DNA of 50,015 bases, taken from the IMG/VR virus record IMGVR_UViG_2917403263_000001; one strand, 5' to 3'. Every line of letters begins with the position of its first letter. The first letter of the stretch is position 1. Shown piece after piece: positions 3,384-25,729 of the stretch. The translations under genes were made by a program, and so were the position numbers. Origin of the DNA: a virus. Lineage: Duplodnaviria; Heunggongvirae; Uroviricota; Caudoviricetes. The notes under the pieces were generated by a model. That model searched no databases. It was not told the origin of the DNA and worked only from the letters and a program-made list of their open reading frames with translations.

Positions 3384-6300
3384 TCAACGAATACTGATAC
3401 CGGAAGCAGCTTTTTTGGTCACAATCACCGTACAGTCTGTGATGTTACCTGCGCCCCGATTGCCTTTCTGGAAAATCTTAAACTCCAGAGTGACGCTACC
3501 ACCACCACTCGGCATATCAATAACCGCGCTGTAACTACCGGGAATGGCTCCTTTAGTTTCTCTGGATGCGATTAATACGCCGTTTTTACGAACTTCAAAA
3601 CCATAACCCGTGTATCGCGTACCTCCCGGTTTATTACCGCTCCCCGGATCGTCATACGCCACACCGTTAAAAATAATGGGCGGAATAATGATTTGGCGGT
3701 CAAAGTTATGATCATCGTAAATGGTGACTGTAACCGTCCCGCCTGGTGTTTCCGTGTTACCCCACGTACCAGCCTGTTTCGGGAATGATTTGGATACAGT
3801 TTTAACGAAGTCACCTCTGACCTGGTTCGCCTCCAGCATGCCCTTAATCGTACAGTTTTCATTTACCGTGACGTTGTTGAGCGTCCCGGAGTTCGCATTC
3901 ACGTTACCGCTGATATCAGCATTTCTCGCCGTCAGCCGCCCGTCCGGTGTCAGGGAAAATGCCGGAGGATTACCACCGCTGGTAATGGTGGGAGCCGTCA
4001 GATATTTCAGAAACACTTCGTTCATGAATATCTGGTTGCCCTGCGCCACAAACATCGGCGTTTCATTCCCGTTTGCCGGGTCAATAAACGCGATACGGTT
4101 AGCGGCAACCAGGAACTGGCTCAGTTTGCCTTCCTCCGTATCCTCCATGCTGAGGCCAAGCCCCGCGACATAATGCCTGCCGTCTTCGGTCTGCTCAATT
4201 TTGACGCCCCACATGGCATTCCATTTATCGTTGGCGTCTTTCCACTCTTTCGAAAACTCCTCCAGTTTGCTGGCGTTATCCTCCGTCAGCTCGACTTTTT
4301 CCAGCAGCTCTTTACCGAGATGGGATTCGGTTATCTGGCCTTTGAAAAAATCCAGGTAACCTTCGGCATCATCGCTCGCCCGACCGACAGCCTCCACGAA
4401 TGCCGATTTGCCAACGGTGTTCACACTGCGGATATAAAAATAATAATCATGGCCCGGTTTGATATTGATACTGGCAGCTATCCAGTACAGCGCCGTGCCA
4501 AGATAGCGGGCTGCGGTTTCAACCTGCCTGATATCCGCAATCCGCTTTTCCGAGAACCAGAACTCAAACTGTACCGTCGGGTCATAAACGGCAAGATGCG
4601 GCGTTGCGGTTATCTGAAAATAGCCCGGCGTCAGCTCAATCCGCGACGGTGCTGCCGGTGCGGCAATCCGGAACGATACCGACGCCGGATCGCCCTGCTG
4701 CCCCCACGCATTTACTGCCCGGACTGTCAGCGTGTAACGCCCCAGCGCCAGTTGCCTGAAGCGGTATGTGGTTTCCGTCGTCCGGGCTGTGCTGACAAGC
4801 CGCTCACTGCCGTCATCCGCTGCCACGGTCAAGCGAAGCGTAAAGCTCACCCCCTTCACCACCTTCGGCGTGTCCCATCGCGCCAGTACCTGATATTCCC
4901 CGCTGTCTGCGGTGACTTCGGCAGTCAGGTGCTGCACCGCTGGCGGCGTGACACCATTCACCGTGCCACTCTGGTCGCCGTCAAAGTGCGCCCCGTTATC
5001 CACGATGGCCTCTTTTTCCGGCACATGCTGCACGGCGGTGATGGCATACGTGCCGTCGTCGTTCTCACGGATACTCACACAGCGGAACAGGCGCTGACGC
5101 AGCGTCGGCAGCTTCAGCCCCCACACGCTGTATTCGGCAACGCCGTCAGGAACACGGCTCACTTTTACCTTCACGCCGTCGGTGACGGACTGGACCTCCA
5201 CGCTGACCGGATTCCCCTGCCCGTCAACCAGGCTTATCAGCGTGGTGCCGGAGGATGGCAGCGTGATTTCACGGTCGAGCGTCAGCGTCCGGGTCTGGCT
5301 GTTCACCGCCAGCACACGCCCACCGATGCTGATCCCCGCATAGTCATCATCACAGATTTCAATGACATCGCCCGGTACATGGCGAAGCCCTTCTGCGCCC
5401 ACGCTGAAGTCCACGGTCTGCGTTTCCAGCAGCTCCGTTTTAATCAGCCACAGCCCGGCGCGGTGTGCCTGCCCCCGGCTGGTACAGCCAAAGGCATCCA
5501 TCTTCGTGACGTTACGACCGTAACGGAGAATGGCCTGCGTGTCCTCCACAAGCTCTGTCGCCGTCTCCCAGCCGTTATCCGGGTCAATCCAGTTCACCTC
5601 AACGGCATTATGGCGGTCCTTCAGGGCGCTGAAGCTGTAGCGGAACGGCGCGCCATCATCCGGCATCACCACATTACTGTGGTTATAGGTCCACACCTTA
5701 TCCGACGGTCGGTCCTGCACGAACGTCAGCGTCTGCCCGTTCCATACCGGCATACAGCGCATCGCCGAGCAGAAATCACTGAGAACATCCCACGCCTTAC
5801 GCTGTGTGGTCAGGTAAGCGTTACAGGTGATGCGCGGCTCCGTGCCACCAAAGCCGTCCGACACTGACTGGTCGCAATACTGGCCGATGACATACAACGC
5901 CCATTTATCCACATCCGCCGCACCAAGACGTTTCCCCATGCCGTAGCGCGGGTGGGTCAGCATATCCCACAGACACCAGGCCATATTGTCGCTGTATGCT
6001 GGCTTAAACGTTCCGTCCCAGATACCGCTGTATTGCCGCGTCTGCGGGTTATAGTTCGACGGCACCTGCAGAATGCGCCCGCGAAGATGATAATTACGGC
6101 TCACCTGCTGGCTGCCGAACTGCTCCGAATCCACCTGCACGCCGACCAGTGCCGTGTTCGGGTAGCACTGTTTCACATCGATGATTTCGGTGTATGACGA
6201 CCAGAGCGTTTTGTTCTGCAGCTGGTCTGTGGTGCTGTCCGGCGTCATCCTGCGCATCCGGATATTGAACGGGCGCGGCGGCAGGTTATCCACCACCACC

Positions 6301-18942: not shown

Positions 18943-20058
18943 TTAAATCCCTGCTTTTCTGAATGCCTGTGCATCACGCTCTCGGAGTTGCTTCAGCGTC
19001 AGCCACTCGCCTTTATCGGTGTAAAATTCATCTGGCGACATACCACCATCCCGAATCAGCTTTGCCCGGGTTTCCCCCACAATCTGTTTTTGTCTGGTGT
19101 AAGGCTGGCGCAAAAACCATTCCCTGTAGGTTGTATCTCCGGCCACCACGCCATCCATGCTGGCCCGCTCAGCCGGGGAAATATCACGAACATCAATACC
19201 CAGTTCCTTCGCTGATTTCAGAATGAACGTTTCCGTTGAGCGACAGCAGAAATGAATTTTCCCCGGCCCCTGCAAATAAGGCACGCTGTGACCTACAGGT
19301 TTATTATCCAGCGTATATTTGAGGCGATCCCTGATTCGACATTGTGGCGTAGTACGATTATCAAGCGTTGATAACCATTGCTTACCCTTAATCAAATCAT
19401 TATTCGCGCTGGCAAAACTCTCACGGGCAGTAGCAGCAAGATGTCCAACCGCTGTTTTTGCAATGCTGGCCGCATTAGCCCGACTCATCTGCAATGCACC
19501 GTCCTGAAATCCCTTACTGACATGTCCCCGAATTTTTCTTGCGATCTGCTCATTGGTATCCCCCAACAAAAAACCCTGACGCACCGTATTTGTTATGCGT
19601 CTGAGCCGATCCGCCTCAAGATCTGAGGCCCACTCACTGAGCAGTCGTCCCTGGAATGGTCGCGCCATTGCAGCGGCATAAAGTGCATCAGGTGAGATAC
19701 CAACCAGAGGGTGAACATCAGCAACAAAATCAGGTAGCAGAGAATCAAACAGACTTAACTGATAACCAGCCTCATAAACTGCCAGCTCGTTCAGCTCTCC
19801 GGAGAGACTGGTAAACATACTGTTAATCGCAGCGCGGTTAACCTCTCTGACACTCGCCAGAAGTGACTCTAGGCGCGTAACGGTAAAACTACCTGGATCG
19901 AGGCTGTCCAGAGCCACCAGCAGGCGAGCTGTAAGCTCCGCATCACTGTCATTCAGTGTTTTCACCATTCTGGCAGCCACACCAGTGCTATAGCGGGATA
20001 CCCAGACTGCATGAGCAATTGATTCATCACGCAGCCGTTCATTCACGGTTTGCATCAT
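18943..20058 (-). CDS. Head morphogenesis protein (SPP1 gp7 / Mu F-like)
   Basis: 371-aa ORF immediately downstream of the portal gene; family assignment recalled. Confidence 0.65.
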   Translation of the reverse strand: MMQTVNERLRDESIAHAVWVSRYSTGVAARMVKTLNDSDAELTARLLVALDSLDPGSFTVTRLESLLASVREVNRAAINSMFTSLSGELNELAVYEAGYQLSLFDSLLPDFVADVHPLVGISPDALYAAAMARPFQGRLLSEWASDLEADRLRRITNTVRQGFLLGDTNEQIARKIRGHVSKGFQDGALQMSRANAASIAKTAVGHLAATARESFASANNDLIKGKQWLSTLDNRTTPQCRIRDRLKYTLDNKPVGHSVPYLQGPGKIHFCCRSTETFILKSAKELGIDVRDISPAERASMDGVVAGDTTYREWFLRQPYTRQKQIVGETRAKLIRDGGMSPDEFYTDKGEWLTLKQLRERDAQAFRKAGI

Positions 20059-21446
20059 TGATATCCATCAGCATCACACTCTGATTTTTTAATTCATCGA
20101 TCACTTCCTCTGGACGGGAATCCTGATCAATAAATTTCAACGCCTGCAACACCCGAACCGCATCAATCTGACGTATATCACCGCCCTGACGCAATGACTG
20201 AACAGCCAGCGCGGAGGATGAGTCAAACACCTGGGCAGATACATCCAGTTCAGTGCGCACATCCACATTGCCGCCGCAACTCTCTCCGATCCATTCCGCC
20301 ATTATCTGGAGAATATTATCGAGGGCATCTTCGAGGGAGTTCGCCATTGTATAAAGCGGCGAGTTTTCCTGCATCCGCTCTTCATTAGTCTGATCAACAG
20401 ATTTGGTGGATGTATTTTCAGCCCGCAGAAGTTTAGCGCCGGCATGACGCATCTGATTTTCCAGCTTCTCCAGTTGAGGTTTCGCCAGATTCTATCGCTG
20501 CCCCACTATGTTCAACATATTCGAGGCCATTTTTTGTTCTGTCCTCAAAAATCGTAGCGGTGGATGCACCAACCGTCAGTTCTTCATTTCTGTCCAGCCC
20601 GTAGGCCACCAGCAATGGGACGCGGGCAACATGAAGAATATTGTCCTGCTCGCTCTGGCTTTGCCAGTGCTTGATATTCAACAAGCCAAGATTAAGCAAT
20701 GGCGGTGTACCACGCATAAACCCGATGCGCTTCGTGTACAACGTAACCAGGGGAATATCATCACGGCTGGTATCCCATGACTCGTGAAGCGCCCAGACAG
20801 ATTCGCCATTAGTACCTTCGCTGCGTCGATAAATTTCAACGCGACGGGGCATAATATGGCGGATCTGCTCCACCTTCTTCTGCCCGAAATCATCACCATC
20901 AACAATGATGACCTCTTTTATACGCAAATCAGTAAGAACAACTTTCCCTTTTTCAACTTTCGATTTCCATCCAATAACCTGGCGTGGATTCAGCATCGTA
21001 ACGTATGGGCGACCACCAGCCGCATTTTCATCGGCTTTTGTCCGGATCTCCTTCATATCCGTTCGTGGATAGTCCACCAGCGCATGTGCCACACCATACT
21101 GAAATGCGAGGCTGAAAAATTGCTGCGCCCACACATCCAGTCGGCTCCCCTCCATGTCGATATTTTCTGCATATTCCCTGATTTTTTCCGGCGTTTCCTC
21201 ACTCAATACTGTCGGCTCTGCAAATATGCGTCCAATATTTTGCTTAATGCTTTCTTCATACACAGGAAGTAGCGTAGCCACAGACAGGCGTTTTTTATAA
21301 GCGTCTTCATCTTCGTTAGGCCATTTGGGGAGATAAATTCCCCCCTGCCTGCGCATTTCAAGCGTACCGCCCATCAGTGCGTCATTAATATCCCACGCCT
21401 CCAGCATATCGTTATAGTCGAGGTTGGGTGTTGATATATCAGCCAT
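20039..21446 (-). CDS. Portal protein, reading frame broken as assembled
   Basis: 337-aa ORF (20433-21446) and 137-aa ORF (20039-20452) in different frames overlap by 20 nt; together ~470 aa between TerL and the head morphogenesis gene; break lies in 20433-20500 (T3 at 20480-20482 or T4 at 20457-20460). Confidence 0.6.
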
Positions 21447-21448
21447 AA

Positions 21449-22746
21449 TTAAATCCGAAGTGATGTGACTCTTCCGGTCGGTTTGACAATAGGGAATTGC
21501 TTAACGATGAAATAACCTCCGGCATCATTCGGGTGATCGTTGCCAGATTTTTTATCAGGCTCCCCTTTATCATCCCAGACCTGTTGCTCCAGAGATTCGG
21601 CATATACCGGACAACGCTTCACATTAACTTTATAGCGACGCTCGCCATTGGCATTGCAGAACATTGCATTCATTGAGTTAACGCGATCTTTTACTGGCGG
21701 GTTCGAGTTGTTCACCACAACGTTAAAACCAGCCTGCTTAAGCTGAGCTATATCCGTCGTACTTGCGTTACTTGATTTTCTGGAATCTCCGGAAGCATCT
21801 GGATAAATATAAATCTCCCTCACTTTCCGATAATCATTCCCGTCATACAGCCAGAAGCGTTCTTTAATGATGCGAATCATATCCGGCGTATCGTAGGCAT
21901 TGATGATTTCAGTTACCGCACATGGAAGACCCAAACGCAGCACATGGATGATCCCCGCCATCTTTCCAACGTTAAAATCCATCCCAATATAAATCGGCTC
22001 CCCTGGCTGCTCCACTTCTTCGCAATTATTCAGTTTCCGGTCAAACTGATGGTAAACCGTACCACTTGTCAGGTTAGTAAACTGTCCTCGAAGATAGGCT
22101 TTAATCAGCTCTGGAGGGTATGATTCAAGAAGCGAAGGAATGTAATCTGCTGGCAGGTTCTTTTCATTATCGAAAGTAGATGCCTGCACCAAACCATACA
22201 GTGAGGCCAGCTCTGTTTTTTCACGCACGGCTTTAACAAACTGCTCGTAGACAAATTTGAATCCTTCCGGCGTGGTTGTAACGTCAATACCGTTGCGAAG
22301 TCCATCAACCTTATAACGCATACGCGCAATTATCTTGCGCCACGCTGTTCTGGCTTTTTCCTTCGGCAAAATGTCCAGTTCATCCACCAGTGCATTACCA
22401 ATTTTGAAACCGACGATCGTTTGCGGCTTCTCCATCGATCTGCAGATAGTGGTTCCCCGATACTGACGTCCGTAATAAAAATGAACCTCTTTATTTCCCT
22501 CATTAATTTTTACGTTCAATCCCCAGTCAGCAGCAACTTCTTCCACTGTAGGGTAAAAAATATCGCGAATTTGGGGATACGTTGGCGCAAAATATCCCTG
22601 ATTTATACCTGGATGCTCCCAAATCCCTTTGCATATGCCGCCACACCCAACCCATGTTTTACCCGAGCCAAAACCAGCAATATAGGCTTTAAATTTATGG
22701 GGCATTGAAAGAAATCGCGCCTGAGGCACATTAAGCGTCGGAGAGA
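21449..22746 (-). CDS. Terminase large subunit
   Basis: Start set at MKMISPTLNV (SD aaggag); Walker-A-like AGFGSGKTW; ~432 aa. Confidence 0.85.
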
Positions 22747-23825
22747 TCATCTTCATCACTCCTTGCTCTTGCATCAACCACATTAATATTGATCGCCACA
22801 GGCTGGGGATGTTCATTATCTTCCACCGTTTCGATCTCTTTACGCAGCTTCTGGTTTTCCATTCTGCGCCGTTCAATTTCCAGTTCCTGTAGCCGCTTAT
22901 CTGCACATAAAGCCCCGCCAGCAGAAAGCAAACGCAACAATTCACGCCGGGCGGCAGCTTTATCCTCCAGCAGGATCTCAACACCGAATTTTCCTAGCTT
23001 TGCCCCTGCATATAATTGCCGTGCATCCCCATCAAGCAGAGTGGTATCAGCCATATAAAGCTGCCCCGTTCCCTCACCGCAGCACTTCGGGCAGTCCGGA
23101 TTGGGTATGGCGTTATCAACAAAGCCAAGCCCTCCATATTCCGGTTCGGGTTTGCCATCTCTGGAAGCCTGCGCCGCTGCCTTATCAAATTCTGCTATAT
23201 CGCGCCACTGGTAGAGATGATTCTCGCCCCAGCAATAACGGCAGTTAACACGGCGAAATTGGGCAAGCTGATTGGGGTCGGCCTGGACAATGGACATCAA
23301 CTGACTCACCAGTAAATCCAGGTCTGCGGTATAGCGTTTCTGGTACTGATTGCGGAAGTAGCTGATAGCACGAAAAACCTTAGGATTTCTTAGGAGCTGG
23401 CTGGCGGTTACGTAGGCCGCATTCCCCTCTGACTCGTATCCTGCCAGCCGATATGCCTCAACGAGTTTTTTCCCCTGGGCAACCAGCATTGCGAATTTCG
23501 CCTGCTGGTCTGAAATACCGAATTCATCGGGACAGAACGAAATTTCTTCCGCATCGCCCTCATTCAGGTACGCATCGGATACTGGCTTTTTTTCCTGAGA
23601 TTTTCCGTTCCGCTTTTGTGCAGTCTGCGCAGATTTTTTCTGCGCACTTTTCTGCGCAGTTTTGCGCATTTCTGTCTGCGCATTTTTCGGAGGTTTTTTG
23701 ATGTAACGACGGGCTGTTGCGTAATTCAGTCCCCTTGCTTCACACCATGCCACCGGAGATATACCGGAGCGGGTGTATTCAGCAATATACTCCTGCTGCA
23801 ACGCCCCCCAGTCCGGTCTGCTCAT
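22731..23825 (-). CDS. Putative terminase small subunit (N-terminal HTH, Lys/Gln-rich linker, Cys-rich C-terminal region)
   Basis: 364 aa, N-terminus MSRPDWGALQQEYIAEYTRSGISPVAWCEARGLNYATARRYIKK; CRYCWGEN..CPKCCGEG; overlaps TerL start. Confidence 0.55.
   Translation of the reverse strand: MSRPDWGALQQEYIAEYTRSGISPVAWCEARGLNYATARRYIKKPPKNAQTEMRKTAQKSAQKKSAQTAQKRNGKSQEKKPVSDAYLNEGDAEEISFCPDEFGISDQQAKFAMLVAQGKKLVEAYRLAGYESEGNAAYVTASQLLRNPKVFRAISYFRNQYQKRYTADLDLLVSQLMSIVQADPNQLAQFRRVNCRYCWGENHLYQWRDIAEFDKAAAQASRDGKPEPEYGGLGFVDNAIPNPDCPKCCGEGTGQLYMADTTLLDGDARQLYAGAKLGKFGVEILLEDKAAARRELLRLLSAGGALCADKRLQELEIERRRMENQKLRKEIETVEDNEHPQPVAININVVDARARSDEDDLSDA
23621..23694. repeat. Phased TGCGCA plus T-tract repeats inside the TerS gene (candidate pac/packaging recognition site)
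   Basis: Five copies of (c)tgcgca followed by T-tracts at 11-15 bp spacing; encodes the AQKSAQKKSAQTAQK linker. Confidence 0.4.
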
Positions 23826-23828
23826 CAG

Positions 23829-24038
23829 TTAGTCCTGATTCTTATCCACCCTGAGTAGTTCGCGCAGGGCAAAGGCATCCCCTTTTCTGGCGAGCTTAAA
23901 CAATGCCGCCCGTAGCTCGGCCTCACCTTTCGCTCTGCCCTTACGGATGGACGCGTAAAAATTTGTCATTGCTTCCCGATTTTCTTTCAACCGGTTCAGA
24001 TCAACATCCAGAACGTCAGCGATTTGTTGTGCAGTCAT
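23829..24038 (-). CDS. Small HTH-containing protein upstream of TerS
   Basis: Probable start MTAQQIADVLDVDLNRLKEN; ~69 aa; alternative start at 24080. Confidence 0.4.
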   Translation of the reverse strand: MTAQQIADVLDVDLNRLKENREAMTNFYASIRKGRAKGEAELRAALFKLARKGDAFALRELLRVDKNQD

Positions 24039-24966
24039 CCGGCACGCTGCCAGAGACTCGACTTTCGAATACGGAATCATTTGTCACCCCCATTGATATG
24101 CAGGGTGTCTTCTTCCTGTATTTTTCGTGAAGGATTTTTACTGCAGCGTTGTTCCAGGTGACCTGATGGTGAATGCGTTTATGGCTGGCGCCCATCAGTG
24201 AGATTTTTACGCACGACGGCGCATACATGACGGAGTAAAAACTTTTAACGTAGGTTCCGGAATCCAGATACAGCTCGGTCATTCCGCCGCTGTTTTTCTG
24301 CGTCTGTTTCTGCCCTAACTGGACAGCACCGATCGTCATAAACAATTCACCACGGCGACCAAGATTCGTGTACGTATTCACATCCTCGTTAATGCGCCCC
24401 ATGAATGAGAACGGTCGTTCAACCGAACAGATAAAGCTGTTCATTGCCTTGCGTTTCACCCACGAAGCATGGCCGCCATTGTCACCAAGAAAATCCCCGC
24501 CCTGTGACATAGCGATGGAAAGCGCGGGTATTGATTCGTAATACGCCAGCATTTCAGAAAGGATCGCATCCAGTTTCCTTATCGGGAAATAGGCCTGGTC
24601 ATAGTTGCGATCCACACGAAACTGGAACTCGTGATAATCATCATCGAGCTGAATGAAGTATTTACACCCGACCAGTTTTGCCAGGTCGAAACAGGCATTA
24701 CGGGCGTAAAAAATTGAGCGGCGATCACCGAAATTATCGGCTTCGTCAAAACGACTGGCGATATCGGCTTTGGAAAACACCAGCACCTGTTCACCAAATT
24801 CAGCTATGTACTGATGCCGTGTCTTATCTTCATCATCAACAACGATAAAAATTTTCCCGGTATAGCCAGCACGACGCAACGTCCGGTAAGTCAGAACTTT
24901 GTCCGGTCGCCCGTGAGTCAGAATAAAGGCGCAAAAATCATCACGCATATTCCTTCTCCCCGCCAT
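24016..24966 (-). CDS. GT-A-like (DxD/DDD motif) protein of unknown function
   Basis: 316 aa; AFILTHGRPD, KIFIVVDDED, YFIQLDDDY motifs suggest a nucleotide-sugar transferase-like fold; translationally coupled to the upstream ParB-like gene. Confidence 0.4.
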   Translation of the reverse strand: MAGRRNMRDDFCAFILTHGRPDKVLTYRTLRRAGYTGKIFIVVDDEDKTRHQYIAEFGEQVLVFSKADIASRFDEADNFGDRRSIFYARNACFDLAKLVGCKYFIQLDDDYHEFQFRVDRNYDQAYFPIRKLDAILSEMLAYYESIPALSIAMSQGGDFLGDNGGHASWVKRKAMNSFICSVERPFSFMGRINEDVNTYTNLGRRGELFMTIGAVQLGQKQTQKNSGGMTELYLDSGTYVKSFYSVMYAPSCVKISLMGASHKRIHHQVTWNNAAVKILHEKYRKKTPCISMGVTNDSVFESRVSGSVPDDCTTNR

Positions 24967-25729
24967 GCATGATCTCCACCATGTGCTGCGTCATCCGGAC
25001 AAATCCATTTTCAATAGCCTGCTGGTAATCAATGATCACCAGCGCCGACTCCTCAAAAAGGCGCTGAATTTCAGCAGGAGCGTGAGCGTAATAGTCCGCA
25101 ATTCTGCTGAAATTAAACACCGTGTGACGTTCTGCCGCACACAGGAGGAATTTTTCGATATCAGGCTCAAGGGACGCCGAACGTATCCGGCTGATCAGCT
25201 CCTGAGTTTTCGTATCGTCGTACAGTTCACTGATATCCGGTTTACCGCCCGACGGCTCATAAACAGGCGTATCAATTTTCGTCGTATAAGGCTCCTCCTC
25301 ATTTCCTGTACCGGGCAAAACATCCGTCAACAGTTCATCAATTTCTGTCGGGCTGAATCCTGTCAGGGAAATATCAAAATCAGCATTGATTAGCTCCGAC
25401 AGCTCCATCCGTAACAGATCTTCATCCCAGCCAGCATTCATCGGCAGGCGATTATCTGCCAGGCGGTACGCCTTTTTCTGATCATCCGTCAGACCAGACA
25501 GAACGATGACCGGAACGGAATCCATTTTGAGCACTTCAGCCGCCATAACGCGACCGTGACCAGCAATAATTTCGCCCTTTTCATCAATCAGCACCGGATT
25601 AGTCCAGCCGAATTGCTTAATGCTTTCTACCAGTTGTGCCACCTGCTCAGGGCTGTGTGTCCTGGCATTGTGTGCATACGGAGACAGTTCTTGTAACGGG
25701 CGATAGACGATCTTCAATTTCTCGCTCAT
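24941..25729 (-). CDS. ParB/Srx-like nuclease domain protein
   Basis: 262 aa; N-terminal ParB-N motif PVLIDEKGEIIAGHGRVMAAEVL; unknown C-terminal domain. Confidence 0.7.
   Translation of the reverse strand: MSEKLKIVYRPLQELSPYAHNARTHSPEQVAQLVESIKQFGWTNPVLIDEKGEIIAGHGRVMAAEVLKMDSVPVIVLSGLTDDQKKAYRLADNRLPMNAGWDEDLLRMELSELINADFDISLTGFSPTEIDELLTDVLPGTGNEEEPYTTKIDTPVYEPSGGKPDISELYDDTKTQELISRIRSASLEPDIEKFLLCAAERHTVFNFSRIADYYAHAPAEIQRLFEESALVIIDYQQAIENGFVRMTQHMVEIMHGGEKEYA

Follow-up and report, generated by a model that had tools for sequence, protein, structure and literature searches.

A TGCGCA array in the small terminase gene of a Rac-type Escherichia coli prophage as a candidate pac site built like that of phage P1

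INTRODUCTION

The small terminase gene (terS) of a Rac-type lambdoid prophage of Escherichia coli carries a tight cluster of TGCGCA hexamers, and the question that this locus raises is whether the cluster marks phage DNA for packaging, serves the expression of the late genes, or simply reflects the protein sequence that it encodes. The prophage is contained in IMG/VR record IMGVR_UViG_2917403263_000001, a stretch of 50,015 nucleotides that is referred to below, at its full length, as the window. The top-matching records are E. coli chromosomes that carry this region as a Rac-type lambdoid prophage, with ynaK, ydaY, and trkG as its neighbors. An earlier note, made from the sequence alone, had proposed the hexamers as a candidate packaging (pac) site within terS. 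This proposal is strongly supported by four lines of comparative evidence: selection at the DNA level, co-variation of the hexamer with the helix by which the small terminase subunit (TerS) putatively recognizes DNA, homology of the respective helix-turn-helix (HTH) domain to the PacA protein of phage P1, and a large terminase subunit (TerL) of a putative headful-type family. We estimate at about 75% the probability that this Rac-type prophage uses the array as its pac recognition site, in a design like that of P1 pac but without GATC.

RESULTS

A cluster of hexamers in the DNA for the TerS linker

The terS product matches the Pfam family Terminase_2 (PF03592) over aa 123-321 with a score of 39.1 bits, compared to the gathering cut-off of 26.1, and PHROG 51 “terminase small subunit” with an E value of 4.6e-75. 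An N-terminal HTH domain and the Terminase_2 core are separated by a Lys/Gln/Ala-rich linker (aa 45-80 read KPPKNAQTEMRKTAQKSAQKKSAQTAQKRNGK), and it is in the DNA for this Lys/Gln-rich segment that five exact copies of TGCGCA are clustered within 57 bp, just as the earlier note had described, along with a sixth, degenerate copy (Table 1). The coding-strand sequence of the array is aaTGCGCAgacagaaaTGCGCAaaacTGCGCAgaaaagTGCGCAgaaaaaatcTGCGCAgacTGCACAaaag, and its unit with flanks can be written as aaaa(n)TGCGCA(g/a)aaa. Tandem Repeats Finder describes it as 4.5 copies of a 12-bp period with the consensus TTTTTCTGCGCA.

The signal lies in the clustering of the hexamer, as its total in the window (17, compared to 20.5 expected) is not enriched, and 5 of these 17 copies fall within the same 57 bp. 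The largest TGCGCA cluster per 60 bp in 300 first-order Markov simulations had two copies, and the Poisson estimate for the observed cluster is ~1e-7. Nowhere else in the window does a complex hexamer reach at least four copies per 60 bp; downstream of the array, there are only scattered hexamer copies with one mismatch.

The exact copies are spaced by 15, 12, 10, and 14 bp on the + strand (mean, 12.75 bp), or by 14, 10, 12, 15, and 9 bp in coding order with the degenerate copy included, whereas the spacings across relatives range from 7 to 15 bp with modes at 12 and 14 bp. The phasing at one helical turn that had been suggested for these repeats therefore holds only loosely, and the argument built on it fails. 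The T-tracts that had been noted after the hexamers are indeed present on the + strand; on the coding strand, they are merely the A-runs of Lys codons, and the idea of intrinsically bendable repeats could not be upheld, the T-tracts being Lys codons read from the other strand.

Relatives carry three to eight hexamer copies at the same position. Among those from E. coli, single copies decay (to TGTGCA, TGCGCG, or TACGCA) and units are gained or lost, with one unit more or one to two fewer, but four to six exact copies stay. The array in the window forms a single cluster, whereas some relatives have bipartite arrays (5 + 2 copies in PhiR12_3 and 6 + 3 in Klebsiella phi18.2).

Two degraded versions of the gene were also seen. 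The first was noted in Rac-SA53 (KU052037, positions 3700-3740) and also at locus L133. In Rac-SA53, terS is annotated as a deletion fusion, “gpOterS”; homology to the window starts within the array, the HTH is gone, two exact TGCGCA copies are left, and the other copies have decayed. In IMGVR_UViG_2529292883_000002 (positions 1501-1770), terS is frameshifted just 5' of the array and its open reading frame (ORF) ends after 88 aa; past the frameshift, the hexamers are read as KKCAERNAQNCAKKCAKKNCADCAK, with five TGCGCA copies still intact.

Selection on DNA, not on the linker peptide

The peptide read from the array is NAQTEMRKTAQKSAQKKSAQTAQ. Four of the copies in the window are read as (xxT)GCG-CAG, that is, Ala-Gln, and are preceded by the codons AAT, ACT, AGT, and TCT. 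The amino acids encoded by these codons differ (Asn, Thr, Ser, and Ser), but each supplies, as its third base, the T that opens the hexamer. In another frame lies the second copy, which is read as ATG-CGC-AAA (Met-Arg-Lys). When the protein was kept fixed and the codons were redrawn from the phage's own usage, 0.77 copies of TGCGCA were expected in the array as opposed to the 5 observed, and 5 or more were obtained in only 2 of 20,000 draws. With shuffled codon order, the expected count was 0.15. A similar excess over the synonymous expectation was found in three other lineages (four in all; ~6-fold, p ~1e-4).

The TerS of Serratia fonticola is 54% identical to the one in the window and has a different linker peptide (SKSAQSEMRNAAQKELRTSKSKTAQS), yet five exact TGCGCA copies are kept, in two frames (three as Ala-Gln and two as x-Arg-x), and the first three show the same 14- and 10-bp spacing as in the window; here, the observed hexamer count was reached in 0 of 20,000 draws. 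In PhiR12_3 and in a Klebsiella prophage, the hexamers use all three reading frames. Some of the resulting peptides are odd, such as KCAKNCAN in PhiR12_3, KCEQNCETAN...ENCETNCESNCETAK in Pasteurella phage Pmp11, whose hexamers are read as Cys-Glu, and IDHEIDHKTDHEIDHD in phage 933W. The sequence comparisons thus indicate that the repeat is selected as DNA and not as protein, because its copies use different frames, their count exceeds the synonymous expectation, and Serratia keeps the hexamers despite the changed peptide.

An AlphaFold2 model of TerS was built from a shallow alignment. Its predicted local distance difference test (pLDDT) score is below 50 at residues 57-93, whereas the DNA-binding region of Terminase_2, at residues 99-160, is modeled as helical with good confidence; N-terminal helices are placed at residues 6-20, 24-30, and 35-38 with pLDDT of ~70-75. 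The linker is probably disordered in this model and would tether the HTH domain, which fits a peptide that is weakly constrained and whose DNA would be free to carry binding sites. A PDB sequence search found no relative of the window TerS.

Hexamer type tracks a putative recognition helix

The N-terminal domain of the window protein has the pattern M-x-x-P-D-W-G-A-L-Q ... W-C ... G-L-N-Y-A-T-A-R-R-Y-I-K-K, which includes the putative recognition helix. Co-variation between this helix and the hexamer was analyzed in 151 distinct sequences from 351 loci, with hexamers counted in the 150 nt after the helix; most of the sequence diversity came from IMG/VR, a metagenome scan, and GenBank phages, and a scan of GTDB genomes gave four loci. 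In the 68 distinct sequences with an ARRYIK helix, as in the window, TGCGCA is found three to eight times, and TGCGAA/TTCGCA and GATCAT are each found at most once. The 71 distinct sequences with AKRYIK have no TGCGCA and four to eight copies of TGCGAA/TTCGCA, with GATCAT again found at most once. The 10 distinct sequences with ARTRIK, the type of phage 933W, carry four to five copies of GATCAT, one or two of TGCGCA, and none of TGCGAA/TTCGCA. In all but one of the 151 sequences, an unbiased count found the commonest hexamer to be the class motif itself or a shifted hexamer that overlaps it.

Overall relatedness of the domains does not account for this pattern. With position 39 (the Arg or Lys that distinguishes the first two classes) excluded, the Lys-class domains of RothD, PSTCR3, and a Yersinia phage are nearest to an Arg-class domain (79-88% identity), while identity among the Arg-class domains is only 37-84%, with some pairs at 37-53%; the motif therefore goes with the helix residue. 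Likewise, 933W and PhiR12_3 share 74% identity in this domain, yet their helices (ARTRIKM versus ARRYIKL) and motifs (GATCAT versus TGCGCA) are different.

The same type of HTH is found on at least five other TerS bodies of 219 to 335 aa. These come from IMG/VR contigs as well as from named phages that infect Klebsiella, Aeromonas, Yersinia, Providencia, Pasteurella, and E. coli. A further 254 GenBank phage records contain the HTH, most of them from Shiga toxin-converting phages of the 933W type. Each of these loci has an array directly behind the HTH-coding DNA. Where the same TerS core is joined to an unrelated N-terminal HTH, there is no TGCGCA array but a different short motif at that position: six copies of TGGAAA/TTTCCA in the record “Actinobacillus phage pPE4”; GGGGCA(A)n followed by inverted TGCCCC in an Erwinia prophage and three metagenome contigs; and three copies of TTCGCAAA followed by inverted GCGAAC (TTCGCA/GCGAAC class) in one more metagenome contig. 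The motif counts in these arrays are also above the synonymous expectation.

Two other proteins were considered as binders of the hexamers and rejected. The gene for the ParB-like protein (Table 1) is missing from several array-carrying loci, and the product of the small ORF upstream of terS is nearly identical across loci of different motif classes. This ORF is also conserved ahead of terS in Serratia and in metagenome loci of other classes.

A separate observation concerns the origin of one of these records. PP818812 (“Actinobacillus phage vB_Apl-pPE4”) shows ~90% nucleotide identity to the terS/terL genes of the E. coli Rac type, and its genes are arranged as in Rac-SA53. Such likeness to an E. 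coli prophage is unexpected for a phage of Actinobacillus pleuropneumoniae, so its host or sample origin may need checking.

Relationship to the pac site of phage P1

The headful phage P1 encodes a PacA protein whose N terminus appears to be homologous to the window HTH domain. An hhalign comparison of a seven-sequence N-terminal profile with PacA residues 1-64 gave a probability of 90.8% and an E value of 1.2e-6 over 39 columns (PacA residues 3-41, including LN..TARRY). Support of this kind, from a single profile comparison, is of moderate strength. In its annotated record, P1 pacA encodes the HTH at codons ~17-41, which is followed by a basic linker and then by TGATCA ×4 at nt 193-232 (peptide SMIIDHSNDQHAGDH); beyond this first cluster come an IHF site and, at nt 275-284, the positions where pac cleavage has been mapped, while another three or four TGATC(A/G) copies lie at nt 323-379. 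P1 pac comprises 161 bp with seven hexamers, each of which contains GATC, a Dam site (PMC10028697), and synonymous mutation of these hexamers lowered packaging ~9-fold (PMC10028697; see also PMC11260489).

In both P1 and the window, the recognition subunit is encoded by a gene whose 5' third contains the array, after DNA for a homologous HTH and a basic linker, and several copies of one palindromic-type hexamer are read in various frames. The packaging genes of the window may also be of the headful type, as in P1. The window array would thus be a counterpart of a proven packaging site, given the homologous HTH module and the same gene layout. Outside the N terminus, PacA is unrelated to the Terminase_2-type TerS of the window.

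A still closer likeness to P1 pac is seen in phage 933W. Its terS (NC_000924, 28775-29581) carries, at nt ~135-185, after a PacA-like HTH with ARTRIKM, four copies of GATCAT with an exact 12-bp spacing and a Dam GATC in each copy. This array is a candidate pac site of Shiga toxin phages, possibly controlled by methylation.

Competing explanations

One alternative is that the hexamers form an operator, bound by the TerS HTH or by some other regulator, that controls transcription or translation of the late operon and has no role in packaging. The co-variation would be compatible with an operator, as it shows that the HTH and the hexamers belong together and not what the binding does, and the + strand palindromes with their T-runs score as four terminator-like hairpins, compared to 1.5 expected for the region. 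We consider this explanation unlikely: the protein is the pac-recognition subunit of the terminase, the homologous arrangement in P1 is a pac site, no sigma-70-like promoter is predicted in the region, and arrays that consist of direct repeats only, such as the one in Pmp11, cannot form hairpins at all. As for the hairpins themselves, four intrinsic-terminator-like structures antisense to terS are found at 23615-23682 on the + strand, out of five in the segment 23300-24200. They might stop antisense transcription but are probably a side effect of the palindromes.

The array could also be a cosB-type anchor for TerS next to the fixed nicking site of a cohesive-end phage, as are the R elements bound by gpNu1 in lambda. 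There, too, the small terminase uses its N-terminal HTH to read a set of short repeats close to where its gene starts, so that the window would follow the same logic. However, the window TerL is of the Terminase_6N/6C rather than the GpA type, the repeats lie within the coding region, and the homologous HTH-plus-array module of P1 serves headful packaging. The nearest named relatives of the window TerL are from Kagunavirus (51% identity) and Jersey-like siphoviruses (43%). Circular permutation has been reported for some of the Salmonella phages in one study (PMC9409062), and the 933W terminase has been used as a headful reference in a large survey (PMC6029569). Taken together, the TerL type, the 933W reference, and P1 favor headful packaging of the window phage, and we view the cosB explanation as quite improbable.

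Much less plausible still is that the selected feature is an RNA structure, in terS mRNA or in an antisense transcript, with the palindromic copies pairing. The window array does fold well (-32.8 kcal/mol; z = -5.6 versus shuffles), as do the arrays of Aeromonas (z = -3.9) and pPE4 (z = -4.3), but the direct, nonpalindromic arrays of the same family have no excess structure (z of +1.0 for Pmp11, +0.45 for Serratia, -1.3 for 933W, and -1.6 for P1), and RNA structure is therefore not the conserved property, be it a hairpin or an antisense terminator. In addition, a helix would allow compensatory changes, yet Aeromonas and E. coli retain the same hexamer despite different spacings and pairing partners, and RNA pairing predicts no link to an HTH amino acid.

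Finally, the tandem 12-bp periodicity, the copy number differences between relatives, and a linker whose low-confidence prediction is consistent with disorder might suggest a slippage by-product of a low-complexity Ala-Gln-Lys linker whose DNA has no function of its own, but a protein-level repeat is largely refuted by the reading frames, the different preceding codons that all end in T, and the ~6-fold synonymous excess in four lineages, while the retention of the hexamer as the peptide changes, the inverted copies in other classes, which slippage cannot produce, and the tracking of an HTH residue make this explanation extremely improbable.

Several observations do weigh against the array being a P1-like pac site. 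P1 has two clusters (4 + 3) around the IHF site and the cut sites, whereas the window has one cluster of five to six copies. The P1 hexamer, TGATCA/G, holds GATC and cleavage is controlled by Dam, whereas TGCGCA contains neither a Dam nor a Dcm site and would not, unlike P1, be under Dam control. PacA has ARRYL and yet reads TGATCA; residue 39 alone is thus no universal code and could be a determinant within the close family only. The HTH and the array are adjacent, so that part of the co-variation may come from joint inheritance rather than from binding. The AlphaFold2 model is of low confidence overall (mean pLDDT of 50), and its third N-terminal helix is short. Because of the 1-nt frameshift in the portal gene, the prophage copy in the window may not package, although the array itself is intact. 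Finally, the literature searched gave no virion ends, read pile-ups, or binding data for this phage or for others with this exact module.

The surrounding genes

The genes downstream of terS are terL, a DUF4055 portal gene, P22-type head genes, and lambda-type tail genes; upstream, there are the small ORF, a TET-associated glycosyltransferase (TAGT) family gene, a ParB_N gene, the lysis genes, and a Q-like antiterminator gene (Table 1). The product of the small ORF aligns with PHROG 309 “terminase small subunit” at positions 145-218 and may have an accessory role in packaging. Among the window ORFs that were scanned, none showed a TET/JBP or DNA methyltransferase domain, and the TAGT and ParB_N genes may represent a DNA modification module without its usual partner. 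The portal gene has 1408 nt, compared to 1407 nt in a 98.2%-identical E. coli relative; either this prophage copy may be defective or the extra base may be a sequencing error.

Table 1. Packaging genes, terS segments, and neighboring genes in the window
Feature	Position	Strand	Remarks
terS, small terminase subunit	22731..23825	-	364 aa; Terminase_2 core at aa 123-321 with an inserted four-Cys motif (CRYC...CPKC); RefSeq relatives annotated “terminase small subunit”
terS codons 1-44, PacA-like N-terminal HTH domain	23694..23825	-	MSRPDWGALQQEYIAEYTRSGISPVAWCEARGLNYATARRYIKK; putative recognition helix YATARRYIKK; putative hexamer reader
terS codons 45-95, linker	23541..23693	-	Lys/Gln/Ala-rich, between HTH and Terminase_2 core; array in its DNA
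Hexamer array, candidate pac recognition elements	23617..23682	-	terS nt 143-208, after HTH codons 1-44
Five exact TGCGCA copies	23677-23682, 23663-23668, 23653-23658, 23641-23646, 23626-23631	-	span 57 bp (23626-23682)
Sixth, degenerate copy, TGCACA	23617-23622	-	exact TGCGCA in many relatives
terL, large terminase subunit	21449..22750	-	433 aa; Terminase_6N + Terminase_6C (T4-like type)
Portal gene (DUF4055)	20039-21446	-	split by a 1-nt insertion into ORFs 20433-21446 and 20039-20452
Small ORF immediately upstream of terS	23829..24080	-	83 aa from first ATG; 69 aa in RefSeq relatives
TET-associated glycosyltransferase family protein (TAGT)	24016-24966	-	E 4e-35; some RefSeq copies named “GREB1-related”; between lysis and packaging genes
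ParB_N protein, ynaK-like	24941-25729	-	between lysis and packaging genes

DISCUSSION

If the array is indeed a P1-like pac site, packaging might start as follows. The PacA-like HTH would sit on a flexible basic linker ahead of an ordinary Terminase_2 oligomerization core, and the DNA for this linker would hold five to six copies of the hexamer that is read by the same HTH. Several HTHs of a TerS oligomer could then bind several hexamers together and so mark concatemeric phage DNA. TerS would next recruit the large terminase, the presumed nuclease and motor, which would cut nearby and start a headful packaging series. Direct binding, the position of cleavage, the headful mode, and the direction of packaging are what we infer from the comparisons described above.

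The distribution of the module points further. As the reader domain adjoins its sites in one short stretch of DNA, both would move together, and the reader and its sites could travel as a cassette between TerS bodies and preserve packaging specificity through mosaic recombination. We are inclined, by a modest degree, to see here a portable packaging-specificity cassette, consisting of a PacA-like HTH and its own hexamer array in the adjoining linker, that has been placed on at least five TerS bodies and in which Arg39 or Lys39 tracks the base that distinguishes TGCGCA from TGCGAA. The hosts of this candidate cassette include prophages of E. coli, Klebsiella, Serratia, Yersinia, Providencia, Pasteurella, and Aeromonas, as well as the Shiga toxin phages of the 933W type.

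How TerS selects viral DNA is considered unresolved, and purified rings mostly bind weakly and without sequence preference (PMC9611059), which makes a movable pattern of reader plus sites all the more interesting. The family offers a discrete reader, discrete sites, and natural variants, namely, a single Arg/Lys-to-C/A switch and the swap of TGCGCA for GATCAT between 74%-identical domains, and these natural specificity variants make TerS recognition directly testable. Should the binding be direct, the correspondence between Arg39/Lys39 and the hexamer base would amount to a simple, readable protein-DNA code for pac recognition. If the cassette is real, pac sites and the origins of lateral transduction could be predicted from sequence and reprogrammed by design. 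The terS type of the window is common, being found in 906 of 5,426 complete E. coli genomes at 80-99% identity, so that a sequence-readable pac would help predict where lateral transduction starts in lysogens of E. coli and of Shiga toxin phages. Packaging-specific phagemids have been made with P1 pac (PMC10028697), and a readable pac would aid their design.

A pac site inside a small terminase gene is already known as a kind, and P1 pac is the nearest case. What differs from it here is a hexamer without GATC, in a single cluster, joined to a Terminase_2-type TerS. We found no description of TGCGCA arrays, of the pac of Rac- or 933W-type phages, or of the spread of the PacA-like module in a literature search that mostly did not extend to subscription journals, so an earlier description is possible; this search also found no packaging data for PhiR12_3, RothD, Pmp11, PSTCR3, and the Yersinia and Aeromonas phages.

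Among the other known systems, lambda packages from cos, using a large terminase of the GpA type, and its cohesive ends are fixed; its R elements lie upstream of Nu1 rather than in coding sequence. P22 and Sf6 resemble the window in having pac inside terS, with the recognizer and its site inherited together; a pac in this position can change only in ways that suit the protein as well as the DNA signal (PMC11260489; PMC9611059). Unlike the window array, however, P22 pac is a single asymmetric 22-bp sequence, and the P22 TerS differs in its family and in its DNA-binding region. The G1P proteins of SPP1 and SF6 have a TerS core of the same Terminase_2 family as the window protein, and the model in which several HTHs of one ring touch several points of the pac DNA (PMC4737164; PMC9611059) would be shared with them. 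In SPP1 and SF6, it is the Terminase_2 HTH itself that binds DNA, its contacts are largely sequence independent, and pac lies at and before the start of the gene, whereas the window TerS has an extra, unrelated HTH appended to this core and, putatively, discrete cognate hexamers for it to read.

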